From Wenzhouxiangella sp. (GTDB lineage Bacteria > Pseudomonadota > Gammaproteobacteria > Xanthomonadales > Wenzhouxiangellaceae), in NCBI GenBank assembly GCA_036351755.1, contig JAZBPT010000044.1, positions 2,685-66,684 of the forward strand: a stretch of 64,000 bases of DNA, written 5' to 3'. Below the pieces are notes generated by a model that saw only the letters and a list, made by a program, of their open reading frames with translations, ran no database searches and had not been told where the DNA came from. This document shows, piece after piece, positions 1,565 through 27,863 of the stretch. Within the stretch, counting starts at the first letter, position 1. Every line of letters begins with the position of its first letter. The translations under genes and the position numbers were made by a program.

Positions 1565-2557
<993 letters not shown>

Positions 2558-2583
2558 TTATCCGGGTGGTGTGCGATGCGGGC

Positions 2584-2589
2584 ATTATA
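2584..2589 (-). promoter_or_regulatory. Putative sigma70 -10 element for hemB
   Basis: Perfect TATAAT on the minus strand about 30 nt upstream of the hemB start. No good -35 element is visible. Confidence 0.4.
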
Positions 2590-2674
2590 AGCTTGCGCCG
2601 CGATCGGGTCGGAGTCGAGATGGCCCTGGGTCGGCAGGATGAATACGATTGCCAGGCGGAGTAGAATGCGACCC

Positions 2675-2896
2675 ATGGCTGCGAATATCAAAGAAGCGCT
2701 GCGCACCCTGGCCGATCAACTCCCCGAGGGAGCGACCTGGAGGGATGTCGCCTATGAGGCCTTTGTCCGCCAGGAGATCGAAGCCGGTCTGGAAGAAGCC
2801 CGCCGGGGCGAGTTCGCCACGGACGACGAAGTGAAATCTGCCTTCGCCAAATGGGGTGTGCAGGTTGAAGCTGAAGTGGACACGCCGCGCCCTTGA
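2675..2896 (+). CDS. Putative antitoxin of a RelE/ParE-type toxin-antitoxin pair
   Basis: Small acidic ORF (LPEGATWRDVAYEAFVRQEIEAGLEEARRGEF) overlapping the downstream RelE/ParE gene. The start is uncertain (2639, 2666 or 2675). Confidence 0.7.
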   Translation: MAANIKEALRTLADQLPEGATWRDVAYEAFVRQEIEAGLEEARRGEFATDDEVKSAFAKWGVQVEAEVDTPRP

Positions 2897-3140
2897 GCAA
2901 CTCGCCGAGGCGCAGGACTATATCGCCCAGCAAAATCCCGCCGCTGCCGGCCAGGTCGGCGAACGGATCGCCGAAGCTACCCGCAAGTTAATGACCCAGC
3001 CCCGTATGGGCCAGCGGGGGCGAGTGGCCGGAACCCGGGAATGGGTCATTGGGCGCACCCCTTACTTCCTGGTCTACAAGCTGGAAGACGACGAGCTGAT
3101 TATCCTGCGCGTCATCCACGGCAAACAGCACTGGCCATGA
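2865..3140 (+). CDS. RelE/ParE family toxin
   Basis: Family pattern LKWTRRALEQL...YIAQQNPAAA...PRMGQRGRVAGTREWVI...PYFLVY...IILRVIHG. Start is TTG 2865 or GTG 2856. Confidence 0.88.
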   Translation: MKLKWTRRALEQLAEAQDYIAQQNPAAAGQVGERIAEATRKLMTQPRMGQRGRVAGTREWVIGRTPYFLVYKLEDDELIILRVIHGKQHWP

Positions 3141-3232
3141 CCTTGATTCAGCGCTGCCTGAGTACCCGGGACATTAGCGGCTTGAAGGTTATTCCCTGGG
3201 AAAATGCCGCGGTGTGTTCGGGGCCGTGATGG

Positions 3233-3273
3233 CGCATCGGCCGATGCGTTGCGCTTCGCTCCACGCATCCTAC
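3233..3273 (-). repeat. GTAG-type REP-like palindromic element (truncated REP doublet)
   Basis: The minus strand reads GTAGGATGCGTGGAGCGAAGCGCAACGCATCG (GTAG foot plus hairpin). It overlaps a perfect 16-bp palindrome CGCATCGGCCGATGCG at 3233-3248. Confidence 0.6.
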
Positions 3274-3385
3274 CGCTCTAATTCTCACGCCTCAGCACCG
3301 CAGCATCGTACGTGGCCCACTTTGGTGGATGTAAAACCCGTCTGGTGGCGCCCCTCTTGGCATGGGGCCAGATGGATGTTAGGAC

Positions 3386-4249
3386 ATGTGTATGAAGATG
3401 CTTGTATTTGTGGGTCTCTCGTTGATTGCTTCATCATGTTATGCGAGCGATCAAGAATTGGCGGCCATATTGGACGGCGCAATTGGGGGGAACTCTGACT
3501 GCGAGGAGTTGTTCCACCAGTATTCCTTGTCTGATTCGGTTGACTGTTTTAATGCCAGTTACGAGAGTTCAGAGCACGACCTAGTCAAGTCGGTAGCGCG
3601 CCACGGAAGTTCTTTAGCTTACCAGCGGATGGGCGAGCACCAAAAAGCTCTTGATGACATGCAGGAGGCTATTCGTCTGGCTCATTCGTACAAGGAAGCT
3701 GTTCTCTACATGGCCAGATTGCTGGCCGGCTATAGCCGGCTGCTGCTGTTTCACGATCAGAGGGATCTTGCCGATAGGTATCTAAAGAACTCCAGAGACT
3801 ACTACGAAACCTATATCAAGGTTATGGGCTCGGATCACCCGGAGACTGGGTTCCTGGCTTATCAGGTGAGCGCTTCGTTATATCTGGAAGCTGGTGATTT
3901 CTCGGAGGCAAGGGCTTACGCGAGAAAGGCGCTAAATAAGGCGGCTTTGATGCCAGAGGTTGTACCATCCACGACCCATCTGTTGCTGGCGAAGCTTGAA
4001 GCTGCAGTTCAGAGGCCTGACGAAGCGCGTGTCGCTGCCTGGAGGGCGTGCAGGTCTGATGGGAATGAGCCTGCTGTGGTGGAAGGGTGCATATTGGCTG
4101 CCCGTGGTGCCAAGGAAGAAGGCAATGAGAATTGCGCGAGTCGAGCTCTTTCAAGAGCCCTGGAAAAGTCTGAATCCGCCAATTGGGAGGATGATGATGT
4201 GGCGATGGAAATTGAAAGTTTGATCCGTGAAATCGGGAATGCCAATTGA
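3386..4249 (+). CDS. Hypothetical exported TPR-like protein of lower GC content
   Basis: 287 aa with an N-terminal hydrophobic signal-like segment and TPR-like helices (AYQRMGEHQKALDDMQEAIRL, LYLEAGDFSEARAYARKAL). Visibly more AT-rich than its neighbours. Confidence 0.65.
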   Translation: MCMKMLVFVGLSLIASSCYASDQELAAILDGAIGGNSDCEELFHQYSLSDSVDCFNASYESSEHDLVKSVARHGSSLAYQRMGEHQKALDDMQEAIRLAHSYKEAVLYMARLLAGYSRLLLFHDQRDLADRYLKNSRDYYETYIKVMGSDHPETGFLAYQVSASLYLEAGDFSEARAYARKALNKAALMPEVVPSTTHLLLAKLEAAVQRPDEARVAAWRACRSDGNEPAVVEGCILAARGAKEEGNENCASRALSRALEKSESANWEDDDVAMEIESLIREIGNAN

Positions 4250-4497
4250 GCTGGAATTCTGAATAGTTCGAACTCGGTGCTTTGGAACTGCACCAACTGT
4301 TCAAGTTGAGCAATTACCCGATACTCAGGGTCTCCCATGTGTCCGATTATGTCGCCTCGATAACCTCGGGCTCAGGCTCCTTGGGAAGGATCGGCGGCAG
4401 TTTCTTTTGACCCAGCGCAGCGCCCGCGAAGTGCCGAGCCCCCCAGTGCGTCCGGTACCATGACCCTCGCCCAAGCCTCCGAATCCCGCAGCGCCGA

Positions 4498-4537
4498 ACC
4501 AAAACACCAAAACACCAAATAACCAAGAAGCCAATTT
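4498..4537 (+). repeat. Degenerate 8-bp tandem repeat (ACCAAAAC-like, about 5 units)
   Basis: ACCAAAAC ACCAAAAC ACCAAATA ACCAAGAA GCCAATTT. Confidence 0.6.
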
Positions 4538-4573
4538 CCCCAACCTCGACGCCGAGATGCTAATCTCAACGCC

Positions 4574-5476
4574 ATGCCAGCCACCATCCGCATTCCCGAA
4601 ATGCGCCCATCCGAGCCGGTCGACGTGCCGGTCGGGGACATTGCCCGGCTGGCCGAGTTCATCGACGCTCACGATCGCCTCGTCGTGCTCACCGGCGCCG
4701 GCATCTCCACGCATTCGGGTATTCCCGCCTACCGCGACGGCAGCGGGCGCTGGCTGCAGCGTCGGCCGATTCTTTTCCAGGATTTCATGCGTTGCGAGCA
4801 CACCCGCCGGCGCTACTGGGCGCGCAGCTACTTCGGCTGGCCGGTGATGGCGAAAGCCGGGGTCAATCCCGCGCACGAGGCGCTGGTGGCGCTCGAGCGC
4901 GGTGGTCGGCTCGCGCAGGTGGTTACCCAGAACGTCGACGGCCTGCACCGGCGCGCCGGGCAGGAGGGCCTGGTCGAGCTGCACGGGCGCCTCGACCGCG
5001 TCCATTGCCTGGACTGTGGTACGGTCGGCTGCCGCGGCGAGCTTCAGCGGCGGTTGGCCGAACTCAACCGCGACTGGACCGCCGATGTGCAGGGCATCAA
5101 CGCCGACGGCGACGCCCGGCTGGACGATTCGGACTGGCCGGGCTTTCGTGTGGTCGGCTGCCCCGCATGCGGCGGTACGCTCAAGCCGCAGGTCGTGTTC
5201 TTCGGCGAAACGGTGCCGCGGCAAACGCATGAAGCGGTCGGACAGGCCCTGTCGCGGGCCACCGCGCTGCTGGTCGTGGGCAGTTCCCTGGTGGTCGGTT
5301 CGGCCTATCGCCTGGTGCGCGACGCCGCCGCCCGAGGCCTGCCCGTGGCGGCCGTCAATCGTGGCCGAACGCGGGCCGACGAGCTGCTGGCCTTCAAGGT
5401 CGATGCCGGTTGCGAGACGGCGCTGTCGGCGGCCGCCGATCTTTGCCTGGGCCGGGGTTCAGGCCGCGGTCGATAG
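4574..5476 (+). CDS. NAD-dependent protein deacylase, Sir2 family (class II, SIRT4-like)
   Basis: Motifs TGAGISTHSGIPAYR, RRRYWARS, TQNVDGLH, ELHG, Zn ribbon CLDC...CPAC, LKPQVVFFGE and GSSL. Confidence 0.93.
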   Translation: MPATIRIPEMRPSEPVDVPVGDIARLAEFIDAHDRLVVLTGAGISTHSGIPAYRDGSGRWLQRRPILFQDFMRCEHTRRRYWARSYFGWPVMAKAGVNPAHEALVALERGGRLAQVVTQNVDGLHRRAGQEGLVELHGRLDRVHCLDCGTVGCRGELQRRLAELNRDWTADVQGINADGDARLDDSDWPGFRVVGCPACGGTLKPQVVFFGETVPRQTHEAVGQALSRATALLVVGSSLVVGSAYRLVRDAAARGLPVAAVNRGRTRADELLAFKVDAGCETALSAAADLCLGRGSGRGR

Positions 5477-21670: not shown

Positions 21671-21752
21671 GCTGCCTGACCGAATGTCTCGGCCAAGTTT
21701 CCTTGACCGACAGCGGTTGGGCTCCCGATTGACTGATAGGAGAATTGTCGAA

Positions 21753-23180
21753 ATGAAATTTGCGCTTTGGCTGGCCGCTGGCCTGCTTCTCGCCGGGCCG
21801 CTGGCCGCCGAGCCTTTTTCCGAGGAAGACCTGGCCGTCGCGCGCGAGCTGCGCGAAGCGGCCCTGGCCGGTGACGGCGGCTACGAGGTCGTCGCCGAAC
21901 TGACCACCAGTATCGGGCCGCGACTGGCCGGCAGCGAAGCCGATGCGCGGGCCGTCGACTGGGCCGTGGCCCTATTCGAGGACATGGGTTTCGACCGCGT
22001 CTGGACCGAGCCGGCCACCTTCCCGACCTGGCACCGCGGGCTGGAGCGCACCGAGGTCGTTTCGCCTGCGCACCACGAGCTCGTCACCCTGGCGCTGGGG
22101 TTTTCGCCGGCCACGCCAAAGGGCGGTATCGAGGCCGAAGTGGTGATGTTCGACGACCTGGCCGCGCTCGAGGCGGCCGATCCGGCCGAAGTGGCCGACC
22201 GCATCGTGTTCATCCGCAACCGCATGGAGCGCACGCGTACCGGAGCCGGCTACGGCCGCGCCGTGGGCGCGCGTTCGGTGGGCAGCCGCGTGGCGGCCGA
22301 AAAGGGCGCCCTGGCGCTGGTCATCCGCTCGATCGGCACGTCCAACAACCGCTTTGCCCACACCGGCATGCAGCGTTTCGACTCCGACGTGCGCATGCTG
22401 CCGGCGGTGGCTATCTCGAACCCCGATGCCGACTTGCTCGAGCGCCTGATGGCCGGCGAGGAACCGGTACGCATCCAGGTCGAAGTCGACGCCGAGACGG
22501 TCGAGGCCTACACCTCCCAGAACGTCTTCGCCGAGATCACGGGGTCTGAAACGCCCGAGGAAATCGTCGCCATCGGCGCCCACCTGGACTCCTGGGACGT
22601 GGGTACCGGAGCGATCGACGACGGTGCGGGCGTGGCGATCGTGACTGAAGCCGCGCGCCTGATCAAGGAACTCGATCGGCGACCGGAACGCTCGATCCGC
22701 GTCATTCTGTTCGCCGCCGAGGAAATCGGACTGTGGGGCGGCCGCGCCTGGGCCGATGCCCGGGAAGGCGAGATAGAGCGCTATCAGCTGGTGGCCGAAT
22801 CCGACTTCGGGGCCGGACGCATCTACGCAATCAGTGCGCGGGTGAAGGACGAGGCCTGGCCGGTGATTGCCGCCATCCAGGCCGAGCTGGCCCCACTGGG
22901 CATCGAGATGGGAGACCGCCGTGCCAACGGCGGCCCCGACTTCTACCCGGCCGCCCCCCTGGGTGTGGCCGCCGTCGACCTCAAGCAGGACGGCACCGAG
23001 TACTTCGATTACCACCACACGGTCAACGACACGCTCGACAAGATCGAGCCCGACGCCCTGGCGCAGAACGCCGCGGCCTACGCCGTTCTGGCCTGGCTGG
23101 GCGCGCAGGCGTCGATGGATTTCGGGTCGGGCGAGACCATCCTGGCCGAAGAAGCCGGGCGAGAGGGGTCGGACGGCTGA
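21753..23180 (+). CDS. Exported M28 family metallopeptidase with PA domain (carboxypeptidase Q-like)
   Basis: SD AGGAG and signal peptide MKFALWLAAG. Motifs GPRLAGS, GAHLDSWD, GAIDDGAG, AEEIG, ESDFG and YHHT..DT. Confidence 0.92.
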   Translation: MKFALWLAAGLLLAGPLAAEPFSEEDLAVARELREAALAGDGGYEVVAELTTSIGPRLAGSEADARAVDWAVALFEDMGFDRVWTEPATFPTWHRGLERTEVVSPAHHELVTLALGFSPATPKGGIEAEVVMFDDLAALEAADPAEVADRIVFIRNRMERTRTGAGYGRAVGARSVGSRVAAEKGALALVIRSIGTSNNRFAHTGMQRFDSDVRMLPAVAISNPDADLLERLMAGEEPVRIQVEVDAETVEAYTSQNVFAEITGSETPEEIVAIGAHLDSWDVGTGAIDDGAGVAIVTEAARLIKELDRRPERSIRVILFAAEEIGLWGGRAWADAREGEIERYQLVAESDFGAGRIYAISARVKDEAWPVIAAIQAELAPLGIEMGDRRANGGPDFYPAAPLGVAAVDLKQDGTEYFDYHHTVNDTLDKIEPDALAQNAAAYAVLAWLGAQASMDFGSGETILAEEAGREGSDG

Positions 23181-23189
23181 GCGACCTGG

Positions 23190-23966
23190 TCAGTCCAGGG
23201 CATCGATTGCCGCGATCCACTGCTCGTCCCGTTCGGCCTCGACCGCCGGCGGGATGACCAGGGTGGTGTATTCCTTGTAGCGCGCCGACGGCAGGTCGGC
23301 CAGCGTCATTCGCTCGGCCCGGAAATCCTCGATCGGCAGCTGGGCGGCCTCGTAGAGGATGACGGGCGTGTCCAGGGCGTATCGGCGCGAAAGTTTGTCG
23401 ACCAGTACCTGAAGCCGCTTCGGGTCCGGTTCGAAGCCCACGCAGTCGAGATTGCCGGCCAGCGCCACCTGCCACAGCAGCACCAGCGCGGTCGGATCGA
23501 GCGAGTGCTTGTAGGCCAGAAAGCGGGTTGCCTCGATGGACTGCACGCCCCGCTCGCCCGGATCGAGTCCCAGGTCGGCGTATAGGCAGGCTTCAGCCGA
23601 AATGCCCGGTTCCATGCGTGCGGGCAGCCCCGCGGCGCGGACCTGCGCAATCGCTTCGTGCGGCACCTGGGCGAATACGCCGGGGTGCCCGTAGAACACC
23701 GTGCAGACGCGCTCTCCGGCCGATACCGCTTCGATGATCAATGCCTTCATGGCCCGGTAGGTCTCGCGCCGGTCCGTGCGATCGTCGTAGTAGTCCGTGA
23801 GGTCGACGGCGTCGGGGCGCCGGGATGCGATCCAGTCGAAGGCGAGCGCGTCGGCCAGGACGAATACCGTGTCGGCGGCCAGGATCTCGCTGACGGCACG
23901 CTCGGTGATGTGGCGCCCCAGCTGGATGCCGCAACCGACCACCACCAGTTCGCCGTGTTGCCGCAT
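23190..23966 (-). CDS. Split-borosin backbone alpha-N-methyltransferase (SonM/OphMA-like, tetrapyrrole-methylase fold)
   Basis: Motifs GELVVVGCGIQ, DYY...RRETY (catalytic Tyr/Arg/Tyr), FYGHPGVF, MEPGISAEACLYADLGLDPG, QSIEAT.F, LLWQ, YEAA.LPI and TLVIPP. No fused core peptide. Confidence 0.9.
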   Translation of the reverse strand: MRQHGELVVVGCGIQLGRHITERAVSEILAADTVFVLADALAFDWIASRRPDAVDLTDYYDDRTDRRETYRAMKALIIEAVSAGERVCTVFYGHPGVFAQVPHEAIAQVRAAGLPARMEPGISAEACLYADLGLDPGERGVQSIEATRFLAYKHSLDPTALVLLWQVALAGNLDCVGFEPDPKRLQVLVDKLSRRYALDTPVILYEAAQLPIEDFRAERMTLADLPSARYKEYTTLVIPPAVEAERDEQWIAAIDALD

Positions 23967-23969
23967 GGA

Positions 23970-25706
23970 TCAGTCGACGCGCTGGGGCTCGGCGACGACC
24001 ACGCTGTTTCGTCCTCCGCCCTTGGCCCTGTAGAGCGCTTCGTCCGCGCGCTTGCGCAGGCTCTCCAGGGCTTCGTCCGGCGCCAGCTCGGCCACGCCGA
24101 AGCTCATCGTCAGCGGTTTTTCGTTGCCCCCGTACTGGATCTCGGCCAGGTCATTGCGAACCTGTTCCAGCCGTTCGAGAACCGGCTCGAGCTGGCTGTC
24201 GGGTATGCAGACGGCGAATTCCTCGCCGCCGATCCGGCCCACGTGACCGAGCCCGGGGAAGTTCTCGCACAGCACGCGGGCGACCTGTCGCAGCGCCTTG
24301 TCGCCGGCGATGTGGCCGTGCTCGTCGTTGACCTGCTTGAAGTGGTCGATGTCGCCCAGGGCCAGGACCAGCGGCTGGCTTCTCCGGTGCGATTCCTCGA
24401 CCAGCATTCGGGCGGTGTCGAAAAAGCGGGTGTGGTTGCTGACCCGGGTCAGCCCGTCCAGTTCGGAGAGGCGCCGGTAGTGCCGCCGTTCGCGCAGGAC
24501 GTGGATCAGCAAGAGCACGAGAATCAGGAACAGGAATACCGCAAAGCCGGTGGCCATCCAGCGCACGCGTGCCTGCTGCCGACGTGATTGCGCCTCCAGT
24601 TCGGCAACGCGCTTTTGTTCCCGAAGTAGTTCGAGTTCCTGCTCCTGGCGCTGCATGTCGAATTCGACTTCCAGGATGGCGAGCCGGCGCGAACGGTCTT
24701 CGTCGATGAATCGGTCGCGGGCCTCGCTGTGCGCCACCATGTGGCGATAGGCTTCGGCGAATTCCTCGCGCTTGGCTTGTTGCTCGGCAACCAGCCGGTG
24801 CAATTCTGACTTGCGATGCCAAAGTTCTCGTTCGTCGGTGCGCTCGATCAGCACCTGGGCAAGTTCGATTGCTTGCTTGCTCTCGCCACGTTCCGCGGCG
24901 AGCTGTGCCTGGAGGTGTTCCCCGGTCAGCACGCCGTCCGCCCAGCCGGCCTGGCGAAGTCGTTCCAATCCCCTGTCGGTCCAGCGTCGTGCCGCCGCCA
25001 GATCGCCTCTTTCGAGCGCGAGATGGCCCAGCTCCAGCTCGCTGGTGCCGGTATAGACCTGGTCGTTCACGTCCAGGCAGAGCGACAGTGCGTTGCGTGC
25101 TGCGACTTGCGCTTCCTCGTAGCGCTCGGCGTAACGATAGGCGACAGCAAGACGCTGCCCGGCCTGGCATTGCTGACTTTTGTCGCCGGACTGTCCGGCG
25201 ATGGTCATGGACTGCGTTGCGTAGTCGATCGCGCGTTCGTGGTCACCGACAATGCTGTGCACGAACCCGGCCAGGCTCAGAATACGGGATCTCTCGACGA
25301 GATCATCGCTTTCGCCGCTGAGTTCGAGTGCCGACTTCAGCTGTGCAAAGCCCCATTCGTGTTGCCCGACATTGATTCCCAGATTGGCGGCGAGCCGGAG
25401 TGCTCGCAGCCGCTGATCGTCGCTGATCGGGTTCCCGAGCAGTTCCTTGATCTGGTCAATGGCCTTGCCGTAGTCGCCCTGCAATGCCAGGTTTCGGATG
25501 TGGAGCAAGCGAATCTCCACGCGTTGACGAGGCGTGGCCTCGTCGAGTCGCTTCATCAGTGCATCGATGGCCGGTTGTGAAGCGGGTACTGCTTCGGTCA
25601 CGCTGAGATGACGAGCTCGCTCGATCGCTTCGCCCAGGTTGTCGTCCTGGGCGAACGACGAACCGCCCAGCAACGCGAGCAGAAGCATTGCCGTACGCAG
25701 GGTCAT
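23970..25706 (-). CDS. Membrane-anchored TPR-GGDEF diguanylate cyclase (paralog A)
   Basis: Signal peptide (MTLRTAMLLLALLGGSSFA), TPR-like helices, coiled coil, TM segment (GFAVFLFLILVLLLIHV), DIDHFKQVND.HGH..GD and GGEEF. Confidence 0.92.
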   Translation of the reverse strand: MTLRTAMLLLALLGGSSFAQDDNLGEAIERARHLSVTEAVPASQPAIDALMKRLDEATPRQRVEIRLLHIRNLALQGDYGKAIDQIKELLGNPISDDQRLRALRLAANLGINVGQHEWGFAQLKSALELSGESDDLVERSRILSLAGFVHSIVGDHERAIDYATQSMTIAGQSGDKSQQCQAGQRLAVAYRYAERYEEAQVAARNALSLCLDVNDQVYTGTSELELGHLALERGDLAAARRWTDRGLERLRQAGWADGVLTGEHLQAQLAAERGESKQAIELAQVLIERTDERELWHRKSELHRLVAEQQAKREEFAEAYRHMVAHSEARDRFIDEDRSRRLAILEVEFDMQRQEQELELLREQKRVAELEAQSRRQQARVRWMATGFAVFLFLILVLLLIHVLRERRHYRRLSELDGLTRVSNHTRFFDTARMLVEESHRRSQPLVLALGDIDHFKQVNDEHGHIAGDKALRQVARVLCENFPGLGHVGRIGGEEFAVCIPDSQLEPVLERLEQVRNDLAEIQYGGNEKPLTMSFGVAELAPDEALESLRKRADEALYRAKGGGRNSVVVAEPQRVD

Positions 25707-25736
25707 CGGAGTGAACGGAGGGGCAAGGTGAGCGAA

Positions 25737-25949
25737 TCAGTCGTGAGCGTGGATCGTGCTGTTGATGAGATGCACATCACGCAGACCGGACAGTCGACGC
25801 ACTTCGTCGAGGTCCTTGCTCATCATGGCCTTGCGCGCCTCGTCGGGAATTCCCCGCTTTTTCATGACGCCGTCCGGGTCCTTTTCGTACTCCGCCGCGA
25901 GTTCGGCGTCGCTGCCCAGATCCTTGAGAAGTTGCTTCAGTGCTTCCAT
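25737..25949 (-). CDS. Split-borosin precursor peptide (SonA-like: borosin-binding-domain leader plus C-terminal core)
   Basis: 70 aa: MEALKQLLKDLGSDAELAAEYEKDPDGVMKKRGIPDEARKAMMSKDLDEVRRLSG-LRDVHLINSTIHAHD. Strong SD GGGAGG before ATG 25949. Helical LG.DA.L...Y...P..VM...G pattern. Same strand and cluster as the methyltransferase. Confidence 0.85.
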   Translation of the reverse strand: MEALKQLLKDLGSDAELAAEYEKDPDGVMKKRGIPDEARKAMMSKDLDEVRRLSGLRDVHLINSTIHAHD

Positions 25950-25975
25950 GGTCGTACCTCCCTTTGGGTTCATGC

Positions 25976-26004
25976 ATTCTAATCGCTCGCCGGAGCGTTT
26001 GCGA
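25976..26004 (-). promoter_or_regulatory. Possible internal sigma70 promoter for the precursor gene
   Basis: TCGCAA-N17-TAGAAT on the minus strand; the -10 element lies 26 nt upstream of the precursor ATG. The -35 match is weak. Confidence 0.3.
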
Positions 26005-26078
26005 TCATCGGCCAAGTCGAGGGTTCTAGGAAGCGCAGCCGGCGTCCGTCCGAGCCGGCGAGCCGGCCGCTTCCCAAC

Positions 26079-27863
26079 CTATTGCGCGTCGGCAAACACG
26101 ATTCGGTCGCGGCCGTCGTTCTTGGCTCGATAGAGGGCTTCATCTGCGCGCAGTCTCAGCGAGGCGAGCGACTCCCCGGGTCGGGCGCGGGCCACGCCGA
26201 AGCTCATCGTCAGCGGCAGGTCGTCGCCCCCGTAGTCGATGCGGGCAAGGGCTTTTCGCCAGCGCTCGAGCAGTTTATCGACGGCATCGCGATCAAGGCC
26301 GGGCAGGCAGGCGGCAAACTCTTCTCCCCCGACCCGGCCGAGCCGGGCGCCATCCGGACATCGGCTGCGGAGTGCGCGGGCAACGCCCCTGAGCGCGCGA
26401 TCGCCCGCCATGTGTCCGAAACGATCGTTGACGCGCTTGAAGTGATCGACGTCCCCGATGATCAGGGTCAGGGCATGTTCGTCGTCCTGCGCGTGCTTGA
26501 GCATTTCGGCGGCGGCCTGGAAGAACCGGGTGTGGTTGTCGATCCGGGTCAGGGAATCGAGGCGCGAAAGTCGACGAAAGTGCTGCCGACCCCGCAGGAC
26601 GTGAGCGAGCACGAGGAGCAGCGCGATCAGCGCCAGTACGGCGGCGCCGGAGGCGAGCCAGCGTATTCGCCGGTCGGTGCTTCGGGATGCCGCTTCCAGT
26701 TCCGCCGCGCGGCGCTGCTCACGGAGCAGGGAGAGTTCCTGCCGCTGCGTCCGGGTATCGAAGACGACCTGCAGATAGGCCAGCTGACGGGCCCGATTCT
26801 GATCGAGCAGGCGCCGACGCGCTTCGAGACTTTGCTCCATGTGTTCCACGGCATGGCGGAATTCACCACCGGCAGCCGCTGCCCTAGCCAGCATTTCCCG
26901 CGCCTCGGCCACGTAGTCCCAGACCTCCTGATCCCGCAGGCGCGGCAGGGTGTCCTCGAGCAATTCGCGCATGTGATCAAGCCGGTCGGTTTCCTCGAGG
27001 AGTCGCGCTTTGTAGAGGCTCGCTTCGGCCAGGCCCGGACCGTAGCCGGTGGCTTCGAGTCGTTCGAAGGCCTGCGCGAAAACCTCCTCGGCGCGATCGT
27101 ACTCGCCGGCATGGCGCAACAGGTCGGCGAATCCGCTCTGGATGGTCCCGGTGAAGAGATCGTCGCCCGATTCGAGGCAGATCGAGACTGCCTCGCGGTA
27201 GTGCTCGAGCGCGGTATCGTATCGGCCAGCCGCCTTGTGGACGAAAGCGAGGCGGCCGTGGATGACGCAGCGGTCTCTCATCGTGCCGTGGGAACGCGCG
27301 TTCTCGACGGCCGCGTGAGCGTATTCGGTGGCGGTTTCGTATTCGCCGACGAGCGCGTAGAGATAGGCGGCCAGGCTGAACGGCGCGTAGATCTTTTCGT
27401 CGCCCTCGAGCCGGTCTATCAGTTCCAGGCCACGAATGATGTACTCGAAGGTCTCTTCCCACTTCCTCGCGATCATGGTCAGGTTGGCCGCGCGCCGGTA
27501 GGCGCGGGCGCGCTGGACGTCCCGCATCGGCCCGGCGAGTAGTTCTCTCAGCGTTTCCAGTCCGGCCTCGATGTCGCCTGCCAACGCCTGGTTCCGGGAG
27601 ACGAGCAACCAGTAGTCGACCCTTTGGTCGCGCGTCGCCTGCGGCAGGTGTCGGGCCAGTTCGTCCAGCAGGGCCTGGGATTCCTGCCAGGGGGCGGAGA
27701 CGTTGAGCTCGCGCGCCCGGTCGAGCTTCTGGCCGAACTGCTCGGTCGTCATTTCTTCTGCCCGGACTCCGGCCAGGGACAGGAGCGCGCAAAGCGTCGC
27801 CCCGGCAAGCAATCCGAAAGCCGTTCTGGCGCCGGCCGCCTTCAAGAAGGGATTCCGCGGCAT
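26079..27863 (-). CDS. Membrane-anchored TPR-GGDEF diguanylate cyclase (paralog B)
   Basis: Signal peptide ending in VRA-EE, TPR-like helices, coiled coil, TM segment (GAAVLALIALLLVLAHV), DVDHFKRVND.FGH..GD and GGEEF. Confidence 0.92.
   Translation of the reverse strand: MPRNPFLKAAGARTAFGLLAGATLCALLSLAGVRAEEMTTEQFGQKLDRARELNVSAPWQESQALLDELARHLPQATRDQRVDYWLLVSRNQALAGDIEAGLETLRELLAGPMRDVQRARAYRRAANLTMIARKWEETFEYIIRGLELIDRLEGDEKIYAPFSLAAYLYALVGEYETATEYAHAAVENARSHGTMRDRCVIHGRLAFVHKAAGRYDTALEHYREAVSICLESGDDLFTGTIQSGFADLLRHAGEYDRAEEVFAQAFERLEATGYGPGLAEASLYKARLLEETDRLDHMRELLEDTLPRLRDQEVWDYVAEAREMLARAAAAGGEFRHAVEHMEQSLEARRRLLDQNRARQLAYLQVVFDTRTQRQELSLLREQRRAAELEAASRSTDRRIRWLASGAAVLALIALLLVLAHVLRGRQHFRRLSRLDSLTRIDNHTRFFQAAAEMLKHAQDDEHALTLIIGDVDHFKRVNDRFGHMAGDRALRGVARALRSRCPDGARLGRVGGEEFAACLPGLDRDAVDKLLERWRKALARIDYGGDDLPLTMSFGVARARPGESLASLRLRADEALYRAKNDGRDRIVFADAQ

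Follow-up and report, generated by a model that had tools for sequence, protein, structure and literature searches.

A Type IV split-borosin cassette with two TPR-GGDEF cyclases in Wenzhouxiangella and its probable coupling to c-di-GMP signalling

We describe a locus in which the genes for a borosin-type peptide methyltransferase and its precursor are interleaved with genes for two diguanylate cyclases. Our preferred reading, to which we assign a probability of about 0.72, is that the locus is a Type IV split-borosin cassette made up of a three-gene unit and a retained cyclase, DGC-B, with the modifying enzyme coupled to a cyclase. The cassette would be of the SonM/SonA type and belong to the sub-clade nearest to the fused Type X borosins. 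Its precursor, DGC-A and methyltransferase genes would form the standard three-gene unit of the clade, with a conserved promoter-like element of their own. The junction between cyclase and methyltransferase appears tightly coupled here, and elsewhere the two are a single polypeptide. The methyltransferase would act at the inner membrane face beside the cyclase; if so, peptide methylation and c-di-GMP output may be coupled both physically and in regulation. DGC-A and DGC-B would then serve as two sensors that feed different periplasmic inputs into one second messenger.

A conserved four-gene borosin locus

The window is a 64,000-nucleotide stretch of a Wenzhouxiangella sp. contig. It contains four co-oriented minus-strand genes in the order DGC-B, precursor, DGC-A and methyltransferase, separated by gaps of 129, 30 and 3 nt. 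These genes and gaps agree with those reported in an earlier note on this DNA. The features of the locus are as follows.

26079..27863, minus strand: DGC-B, 594 aa (ORF and Pfam)
25973..26005, minus strand: promoter-like element ATCGCAAA-N17-TAGAAT, 5' of the precursor gene, with the -10-like TAGAAT at 25976-25981
25957..25964, minus strand: Shine-Dalgarno sequence AAGGGAGG of the precursor gene, strong, 7 nt before the ATG at 25949 and kept in relatives
25737..25949, minus strand: precursor gene, 70 aa counted from the ATG
25785..25949, minus strand: precursor leader, residues 1-55, of the borosin-binding-domain type with a conserved LSG at its end (SonA homology)
25737..25784, minus strand: precursor core, residues 56-70 (LRDVHLINSTIHAHD), and stop codon (position after (S/T)GL)
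23970..25706, minus strand: DGC-A, 578 aa (ORF and Pfam)
23190..23966, minus strand: methyltransferase, 258 aa (ORF and Pfam)

For the precursor, the mechanical ORF call is longer (92 aa) and starts from a TTG farther upstream. Wenzhouxiangella sediminis and two metagenome contigs carry the four genes with the order and flanks found here, and every gene and domain of the locus is under purifying selection (dN/dS 0.07-0.35). The preserved order and the selection indicate that the four genes form a genuine, conserved set, not ORFs aligned by chance. The sequencing runs containing the locus are DNA from microbial-mat and other metagenomes, with no RNA run among those listed.

The methyltransferase matches the Pfam family TP_methylase. 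We rejected an identity as a tetrapyrrole methylase, since true tetrapyrrole methylases match at only ~1e-4, whereas SonM (7ltc_A) matches with a phmmer E value of 1.4e-64; OphMA and dbOphMA match at ~1e-40. Residues Y60, R66, Y70, Y92, F98, E145, W165 and Q166 are invariant (the first four counted in 15 homologues) and correspond, in that order, to SonM Y58, R67, Y71, Y93, F99, E146, W166 and Q167. Mutation has shown Y58, R67, Y71 and Y93 to be important in SonM (PMC8429565). The protein of 258 aa has no extra domain, and the precursor is encoded as a separate ORF. By homology, we assign the enzyme as a stand-alone borosin alpha-N-methyltransferase. Its nearest relatives outside Wenzhouxiangellaceae are Type X borosins (57-63% identity), and in the tree the methyltransferases make up a single clade (support 98) without a paralogue split.

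The precursor matches SonA over residues 2-58 (chains 8t1s_B and 7ltc_B, phmmer E 5e-8), which, together with the methyltransferase match and the retained catalytic residues, upholds the SonM/SonA-type pairing put forward in the earlier note. Homology thus identifies the 70-aa peptide as the putative substrate of a SAM-dependent backbone N-methyltransferase. G55 is invariant among 40 precursors and the (S/T)GL junction is conserved; the SonA product begins after G55 (PMC10549244). Backbone N-methylation is predicted to fall within the core LRDVHLINSTIHAHD. The core motif TN(S/H)T-I-K-A-Y-D is kept across the clade, as is a free C-terminal (Y/H)-(D/E). The whole genome, which is 85% complete, holds only two precursor homologues.

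The precursor gene appears to carry its own expression signals. The promoter-like element is identical or nearly so 5' of all five PEP2-type precursors, including those of L087 and L004, whose spacers are otherwise divergent. A scan for consensus sigma-70 promoters and terminators gave no calls on the minus strand, so we infer the function of this conserved box. A hairpin after DGC-B was considered as a terminator and rejected, as it folds no better than shuffled sequences (z -1.5).

At the other end of the three-gene unit, the DGC-A stop codon (TGA) is followed by TCC and the methyltransferase ATG, which lies in frame with the TGA, 3 nt on. Many cyclase-methyltransferase junctions in the clade are 3-nt gaps or stop-start overlaps (ATGA, GTGA). 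Sorted by frame, 24 junctions comprise 9 in-frame cases, which reach well beyond the species group of the window, and 4 and 11 in the other frames. The layout of a close stop, one codon and the methyltransferase occurs outside that species group only in L086. Read-through of the TGA from DGC-A into the methyltransferase was considered, and we make no such claim given the mixed junction frames.

Gene order and fusion across the clade

We surveyed 85 loci for the order of precursor (P), cyclase (D) and methyltransferase (M) genes, with DM denoting a fusion. The orders included P-DM (25 loci), P-D-M (18), M-P-D (9) and D-P-D-M (4). The separation of precursor from enzyme, taken as unusual in the earlier note, is thus ordinary: an intervening cyclase is the commonest arrangement, and P-D-M is standard in the clade. 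The flanking of the precursor by two cyclases had also been called unusual. That description fits the exact D-P-D-M order, found only in the species group of the window, but not two-cyclase loci in general (16 of 85). At a single chromosomal site, the genus occurs in three states: D-P-D-M (the window, L083, L084 and L087), P-D-M (L031 and L086) and P-D-M-P-D (L004).

Cyclase and methyltransferase form one polypeptide in about 29 Lysobacterales loci, with fused ORFs of ~840 aa. Such Type X fusions are known mainly from Xanthomonadales and cluster with Type IV sequences from Chromatiales (Imani et al. 2021/2022), the order in which NCBI taxonomy places Wenzhouxiangella. The locus resembles Type X borosins in its precursor family and core motif, its precursor-first order and the Cys pair of its TPR domain. 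It differs in having a second cyclase that is not linked to the methyltransferase, and in lacking the fusion that defines Type X, as a TGA stop codon and 3 nt part DGC-A from the methyltransferase. DGC-A is the unfused counterpart of the Type X N-terminal part.

The borosin and cyclase genes might instead be co-regulated or co-inherited neighbours without a mechanistic link, the cyclases answering an unrelated signal from the envelope, such as redox state sensed by the Cys pair, while the peptide serves a separate role. Solo cyclases of the family are consistent with this explanation: C143 has no borosin gene nearby, and a same-genus genome that is 99% complete contains a solo family cyclase, with no borosin methyltransferase found. 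An AF2 model of the Type X cytoplasmic part (GGDEF-methyltransferase; pLDDT 82, pTM 0.50) has confident domains joined by a low-confidence linker. As it predicts no fixed interface, the fusion may reflect co-localisation only. Shewanellamide A, the Shewanella oneidensis borosin, showed no antibiotic activity and its function is unknown (PMC10549244).

Several observations make a mere neighbourhood improbable. The earlier note's statement that GGDEF genes occur next to such clusters is borne out by the literature, in which 56% of split-borosin BGCs, across phyla, contain GGDEF genes and the TPR domains are predicted to be periplasmic (bioRxiv 10.1101/2021.12.24.474128). The natural fusions and the frequent stop-start overlaps also argue against it. 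Finally, strong TPR-cyclase and methyltransferase matches coincide in 72 of 151 genomes of the order (exceptions 3 and 4), although much of this coincidence is expected because the two genes form one cassette. The coincidence spans several families with patchy distributions. We therefore favour enzyme-cyclase coupling over shared inheritance alone.

Two cyclases and their peptide partners

Both cyclases contain GGDEF and TPR_12 domains (GGDEF E values of 1e-33 to 1e-35; in DGC-B, GGDEF 8.5e-35 and TPR_12 5e-17). They share 42% identity over 556 residues (E 9e-121), with 34% identity in the TPR domain and 56-66% in the GGDEF domain. Each begins with a hydrophobic, signal-like segment and has a single membrane helix (residues 386-404 in DGC-A, 405-423 in DGC-B) followed by an Arg-rich stretch. 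In DGC-A the TPR domain spans residues 21-378, with Cys180 and Cys210, and the GGEEF domain spans 405-578. The TPR domain follows the signal peptide and precedes the only membrane helix, and is accordingly predicted to face the periplasm. The two Cys residues are conserved in 81 and 82 of 82 cassette cyclases. D452, D454, K457, N460, D469, R491, K562 and R566 (DGC-A numbering) occur in 100% of these 82 cyclases and all are present in DGC-B, so that both proteins are predicted to keep intact GGEEF active sites. An RxxD I-site five residues before GGDEF is absent (PGLG in DGC-A, PDGA in DGC-B), as it is from the family consensus.

The two cyclases appear to differ in origin. In the TPR tree, DGC-B groups with the cyclases of L031 and L086 and the first cyclase of L004 (support 99), and DGC-A belongs to a clade (support 100) on a stem of 0.99, outside the clade of DGC-B and the single-cyclase species. 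This basal position of the A-type TPR may be a long-branch effect. The GGDEF domain of DGC-A groups with B0 (support 96). DGC-A thus appears to be a very divergent TPR joined to a B-like GGDEF, and DGC-B an orthologue of the single cassette cyclase in sister Wenzhouxiangella species; in the whole-cyclase tree, the B clade receives only 80% SH-aLRT. By these relationships, DGC-B would descend from an earlier pairing of precursor and cyclase that has since lost its peptide gene. DGC-A and the long-core precursor would be a second precursor-plus-sensor module with a GGDEF resembling the resident one. No short-core (PEP1-type) precursor was found in this genome, which is 85% complete, so such a gene could sit on a missing contig.

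We consider it very improbable that DGC-B is a functionless, decaying remnant of a lost cassette. Such an origin would fit the missing ancestral precursor type and the long branches of the DGC-B GGDEF domains (0.5-0.63). Decay is contradicted by an open reading frame that retains the Cys pair and every catalytic residue, and by dN/dS values from three comparisons of 0.12-0.25 (TPR) and 0.15-0.35 (GGDEF). DGC-B is also retained in at least 4 genomes whose methyltransferases are as little as 80% identical.

The peptide could itself be the ligand of the TPR domains, as the earlier note proposed, an idea that we regard as unlikely. The methylated core would be released, enter the periplasm and dock onto the TPR domain of DGC-A, DGC-B or both, closing an autocrine or kin c-di-GMP loop in which DGC-B is an "orphan receptor" for the cell's own or its neighbours' peptides. 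The inheritance of the genes speaks for this idea. The precursor gene appears to be inherited as one module with the 5' half of the cyclase gene, which encodes the TPR, and core type tracks the TPR and not the GGDEF. Loci with short-core precursors (PEP1, L040, L047 and L007) are exactly those whose TPRs form one clade (support 97). Long-core precursors pair with other TPR lineages, including that of DGC-A, and the GGDEF clades lack this split. Precursor and cyclase were also duplicated together without the methyltransferase in at least 2 independent cases (L004 and L073). Physical adjacency alone could yield such co-inheritance. A partial Mantel analysis of 48 cassettes does not discriminate, because all distances are intercorrelated (r 0.77-0.94); the core-TPR correlation given GGDEF was 0.17, and core-TPR covariation is no stronger than core-GGDEF.

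Structural comparison bears on the same question. The AF2 model of DGC-A residues 21-378 is a 15-helix TPR superhelix (pLDDT 93.7, pTM 0.87), and its best Foldseek matches are the peptide-binding superhelices LGN, RapF, Rap-Phr and NprR (TM 0.56-0.68). Rap and LGN are generic matches for long TPR superhelices, which weakens the resemblance as a point in favour of a peptide ligand. The conserved free C terminus of the core would suit a ligand. A predicted complex of the DGC-A periplasmic domain with precursor residues 36-70 had a score of 0.02 (mark 0.32) and counts neither way.

Export and processing weigh against a peptide ligand. The precursor has no signal peptide, as the earlier note had cautioned, and no exporter or endoprotease was found within the operon. 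The note's broader remark that a protease is lacking holds for the operon but not for its surroundings: a gene for a secreted M28 aminopeptidase adjoins, convergent and 9 nt downstream, and counts in favour of the ligand idea. This gene is syntenic in all Wenzhouxiangella loci. We rejected it as the pathway protease because the linkage is unproven; outside the genus, just 2 Luteimonas loci have an M28 gene, a distantly related one, at this position. The S. oneidensis product was recovered only from cell-pellet extracts and never from supernatants (PMC10549244). In the Type X proteins of sister lineages the methyltransferase is joined to the would-be receptor, which runs against the logic of ligand and receptor and puts the coupling at the cytoplasmic face of the membrane. 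The DGC-B TPR is under purifying selection even though its own precursor type is missing, and the solo cyclases likewise occur apart from any borosin partner.

A more specific form of the ligand idea seems slightly less likely still. Core and periplasmic TPR would be cognate signal-receptor modules of at least 2 types, short-core/B-type and long-core/A-type. This lineage would make only the long-core peptide while retaining the B-type receptor as an "orphan", together with a third cyclase that is solo; LuxR solos likewise respond to signals that their own cell does not produce.

Relation to known systems and meaning

The closest characterised system is the son cluster of Shewanella oneidensis MR-1, which encodes SonM (SO1478), SonA (SO1479), a GGDEF protein (SO1480) and a cation efflux protein (SO1481) and yields shewanellamide A. 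Both loci have a stand-alone SonM-type methyltransferase with identical catalytic residues, a precursor of ~70 aa with the same type of leader and an LSG junction, and a TPR-membrane-GGDEF protein alongside. A protease and other tailoring enzymes are absent from both clusters. Shewanella has the genes as M-P-D, whereas the present locus reads D-P-D-M, has a second cyclase and lacks an efflux gene. The cores also differ (LRDVHLINSTIHAHD here, DSSYQSYLVISHGNGD in Shewanella).

RRNPP receptors (Rap, NprR and PlcR, with Phr-type peptides) resemble the cyclases here in the size and shape of their TPR superhelix and in having an adjoining small peptide gene. They are cytoplasmic proteins of Firmicutes and depend on Opp to bring in a secreted peptide. 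By contrast, the TPR domain in our locus is predicted to be periplasmic and is fused to a cyclase, and the peptide lacks a secretion signal. The two TPR groups have no sequence homology (10-14% identity). Staphylococcal agr offers a likeness of pattern, in that a variable block (peptide core and sensor) lies beside conserved catalytic parts (here GGDEF and methyltransferase). Unlike in agr, the core is fairly conserved across genera, and the analogy is one of pattern alone.

The pairing of borosins with cyclases is already published and still unexplained. The borosin authors write that the native role of bacterial borosins "remains elusive", and the reason for TPR-GGDEF cyclases in most clusters is likewise open. 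We found no published test of the cyclase role in borosin clusters in the literature. Wenzhouxiangella provides a compact natural experiment: depending on the species, a single chromosomal site holds one module, a pair of modules, or two cyclases with one peptide. W. sediminis, a cultured isolate, is among these species, and a few gene swaps could directly test both the specificity of peptide for receptor and the coupling of cyclase to methyltransferase. If the modules are cognate, backbone-N-methylated RiPPs would be a new class of signal wired directly to c-di-GMP. If the coupling that we favour is correct, a RiPP modification enzyme would be linked to second-messenger signalling.

The split-borosin pair and its operon

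The window carries a genuine, well-conserved split-borosin locus of an already published kind. Sequence searches bore out the earlier note's assignment of its methyltransferase and peptide to the SonM/SonA type. The methyltransferase matched SonM structures (E 1.4e-64) and fungal OphMA and dbOphMA (about 1e-40), against only about 1e-4 for genuine tetrapyrrole methylases. SonM is crippled by mutation at Y58, R67, Y71, Y93 and the 'lock' residues F99, E146, W166 and Q167 (PMC8429565); the window equivalents (Y60, R66, Y70, Y92, F98, E145, W165 and Q166) are all invariant in a 15-sequence alignment. Residues 2-58 of the precursor matched SonA chains (E 5e-8). The SonA product starts after G55 (PMC10549244), and by analogy the predicted core is the 15 residues past LSG, LRDVHLINSTIHAHD. 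The source genome is a Wenzhouxiangella MAG, a genus placed under Chromatiales in NCBI, and the nearest named methyltransferase is from W. sediminis (90%).

Features of the locus in the window
26079-27863, minus: DGC-B, cyclase upstream of the precursor, 594 aa; Pfam GGDEF and TPR
25973-26005, minus: box ATCGCAAA-N17-TAGAAT, upstream of the precursor, conserved among relatives
25737-25949, minus: precursor, 70 aa
23970-25706, minus: DGC-A, cyclase between precursor and methyltransferase, 578 aa; Pfam GGDEF and TPR
25076-25168, minus: Cys180/Cys210 pair of DGC-A, from the alignment of cassette cyclases; equivalent pair in DGC-B
23190-23966, minus: methyltransferase, 258 aa; Pfam TP_methylase
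21684-23180, plus: secreted M28 aminopeptidase, signal peptide from Met24

The four minus-strand genes and the gaps of 129, 30 and 3 nt between them are as first described. We favored the 70-aa precursor over a 92-aa mechanical ORF because a strong Shine-Dalgarno sequence, AAGGGAGG, lies 7 nt upstream of its start. The ATCGCAAA-N17-TAGAAT box was not called by a consensus promoter scan. It is kept 5' of all five long-core (PEP2-type) precursor genes, including those whose spacer is otherwise divergent; in its place, short-core precursors carry a TATAAT box with a hairpin after it. Because the box is conserved at every long-core gene, it suggests that the genes for the precursor, DGC-A and the methyltransferase are transcribed as a unit of their own.

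Type X borosins carry their methyltransferase as a C-terminal fusion to a GGDEF protein (bioRxiv 10.1101/2021.12.24.474128), whereas in the window the two genes are separated at TGA TCC ATG (23967-23972, minus), with stop and start in the same frame and one codon between. One substitution or stop read-through there would give a Type X-like fusion. This in-frame layout is common to the three relatives with the same gene order (L083, L084 and L087); in the rest of the clade, stop and start are variously in and out of frame. Many cyclase-methyltransferase junctions among the surveyed loci are stop-start overlaps or 3-nt gaps.

Gene order and cyclase architecture

We surveyed 85 loci (79 from species-representative genomes, 5 from close relatives, and the window), locating the genes by means of the window's proteins and an HMM of the precursor.

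Gene orders among the 85 loci (P, precursor; D, TPR-GGDEF cyclase; M, methyltransferase; DM, fused)
P-DM, fused Type X: 25 loci, plus one tandem pair
P-D-M: 18 loci
M-P-D, Shewanella order: 9 loci
D-P-D-M: 4 loci (window, W. sediminis and two metagenome contigs only)

The earlier note had called the separation of precursor from enzyme unusual. Given the P-DM and P-D-M counts, a cyclase between the two is instead the norm for the clade. Nor are two cyclases unusual in themselves, since 16 of the 85 loci have them, in six different orders. The exact D-P-D-M order, distinct from the M-P-D of the Shewanella son cluster, did prove restricted to the window's species group, and only the extra upstream cyclase is peculiar to that group. 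Elsewhere in the same order, five tandem full-length matches to the periplasmic-TPR profile surround one borosin methyltransferase (genome G119, contig C10, about 35.4-46.5 kb), apparently an extreme multiplication of the cyclase.

Each window cyclase starts with a signal-like segment and has one membrane helix, after which comes an Arg-rich stretch. On this predicted topology the TPR region (roughly 350 residues) must be periplasmic, as previously proposed, and the GGDEF domain cytoplasmic. Among 82 cassette cyclases, which come from several orders, no catalytic position of the GGDEF domain varies and the RxxD I-site is absent. The sole strongly conserved feature of their TPR sensor domain is a Cys-x29-Cys pair (C180 in 81/82, C210 in 82/82; DGC-A numbering), which may form a periplasmic disulfide, either structural or redox-responsive. 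AF2 modelled the periplasmic domain of DGC-A confidently (pLDDT 93.7, pTM 0.87), with 15 TPR helices plus a helix of about 60 residues that leads to the membrane. Its top structural matches were LGN and the Rap/NprR peptide-binding superhelices (TM 0.57-0.68), a likeness expected of any long TPR array.

Origin of the two cyclases

Wenzhouxiangella cassettes occupy one syntenic site (RecQ, DUF6164, cassette, M28 peptidase, NUDIX, FecCD) in three states: D-P-D-M in the window group, P-D-M in two single-cyclase sisters (L031, L086) and P-D-M-P-D in L004. The same states recur, by coordinates, in a genus sample. The M28 gene, syntenic in 7/7 Wenzhouxiangella loci, is convergent with the methyltransferase gene and ends 9 nt from its stop; at two Luteimonas loci (L014, L043) the corresponding place is taken by a distant M28. 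The window's enzyme is a candidate for a trimming role, the analogy being an M1 aminopeptidase that was tested in Shewanella, but the linkage may be mere synteny.

DGC-A and DGC-B are 42% identical overall. A whole-protein tree separated clade A (support 100, long stem) from clade B (SH-aLRT 80), which includes the single cyclases, and the TPR and GGDEF trees were discordant. In the TPR tree, the window B-type grouped with the single-cyclase species (99), in a clade also holding L040, L047 and L007 (97); the A-type lay outside it on a 0.99 stem. In the GGDEF tree, the A-type joined the single-cyclase GGDEFs (96) and the window B domain lay on long branches. These trees agree with the identities between A and B (TPR 34%, GGDEF 56-66%): the A TPR is divergent and its GGDEF resident-like. 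Methyltransferases formed one clade (98) with no paralogue split, and all genes and domains are under purifying selection (dN/dS 0.07-0.35).

Short-core precursors (…LK-SNG-V-AC-D and relatives) occur exactly in loci of the B/L040/L047/L007 TPR clade; long-core precursors (…HL-TNST-IK-AY), including the window's sole cassette precursor, accompany other TPR lineages, A among them. DGC-B is probably the resident cyclase, its own precursor type lost, because its TPR groups with single-cyclase species and no short-core gene was found in the window's 85%-complete genome. The precursor and TPR-A would constitute a second module, with a catalytic half resembling the resident one. The second cyclase thus reflects gain and loss of modules particular to this lineage.

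Why borosin clusters carry cyclases

The association itself, mentioned in the earlier note, is documented: split-borosin clusters have GGDEF as accessory domain more often than any other, in 56% of cases (Imani et al., bioRxiv 10.1101/2021.12.24.474128). That study also predicts a periplasmic TPR and finds Type X clustering with Type IV sequences from Chromatiales. The son cluster includes the GGDEF gene SO1480, its native role one that "remains elusive" (PMC10549244). Our literature search found no paper testing the role of a borosin-cluster cyclase. Among 151 genomes sampled from the order, 72 had strong matches to both the TPR cyclase and the methyltransferase (cyclase only, 3; methyltransferase only, 4), which is largely to be expected of genes belonging to a single cassette.

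We put at roughly one in five the chance that the peptide is a ligand of the cyclase TPR domain. Some support comes from the co-segregation of core type with TPR clade and from the repeated co-duplication of precursor and cyclase without the methyltransferase (L004, L073). Several points count against it. The co-segregation is explicable by adjacency alone, and DGC-B is retained although its own type of peptide is missing. In Shewanella the product stays with the cells, is absent from supernatants and is not antibiotic (PMC10549244). Family cyclases also stand alone: a 99%-complete genome of the genus (G065) has a solo cyclase but yielded no borosin methyltransferase, and the window's genome encodes a third, solo cyclase, flanked by genes for an FlgT_N-like protein, TauD and MatE, with no precursor or methyltransferase nearby. 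The same genome holds a second, different split-borosin locus (L003), whose cyclase differs in sensor type from the window's TPR cyclases.

Loci elsewhere in the window's genome
Contig C143, 7843-9639, minus: solo TPR-TM-GGDEF paralogue (L090), 598 aa; E 6.6e-94 to the periplasmic-domain profile
Contig C57, 494-5064: locus L003
494-2485: 7TMR-DISM-GGDEF cyclase
2482-3996: FAD amine oxidase
about 4048-4246: precursor, 68 aa, ending QLVIL
4246-5064: methyltransferase, 45% identical to the window's

Homology strongly implies that the methyltransferase would N-methylate backbone amides of the precursor core and that the cyclases would make c-di-GMP in response to extracytoplasmic input. Natural fusions, coupled junctions and the published co-occurrence suggest that the methyltransferase acts beside the cyclase at the membrane and that the two activities are functionally linked. 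Wenzhouxiangella, with a cultured representative, is a clean system for asking why borosin clusters carry cyclases.
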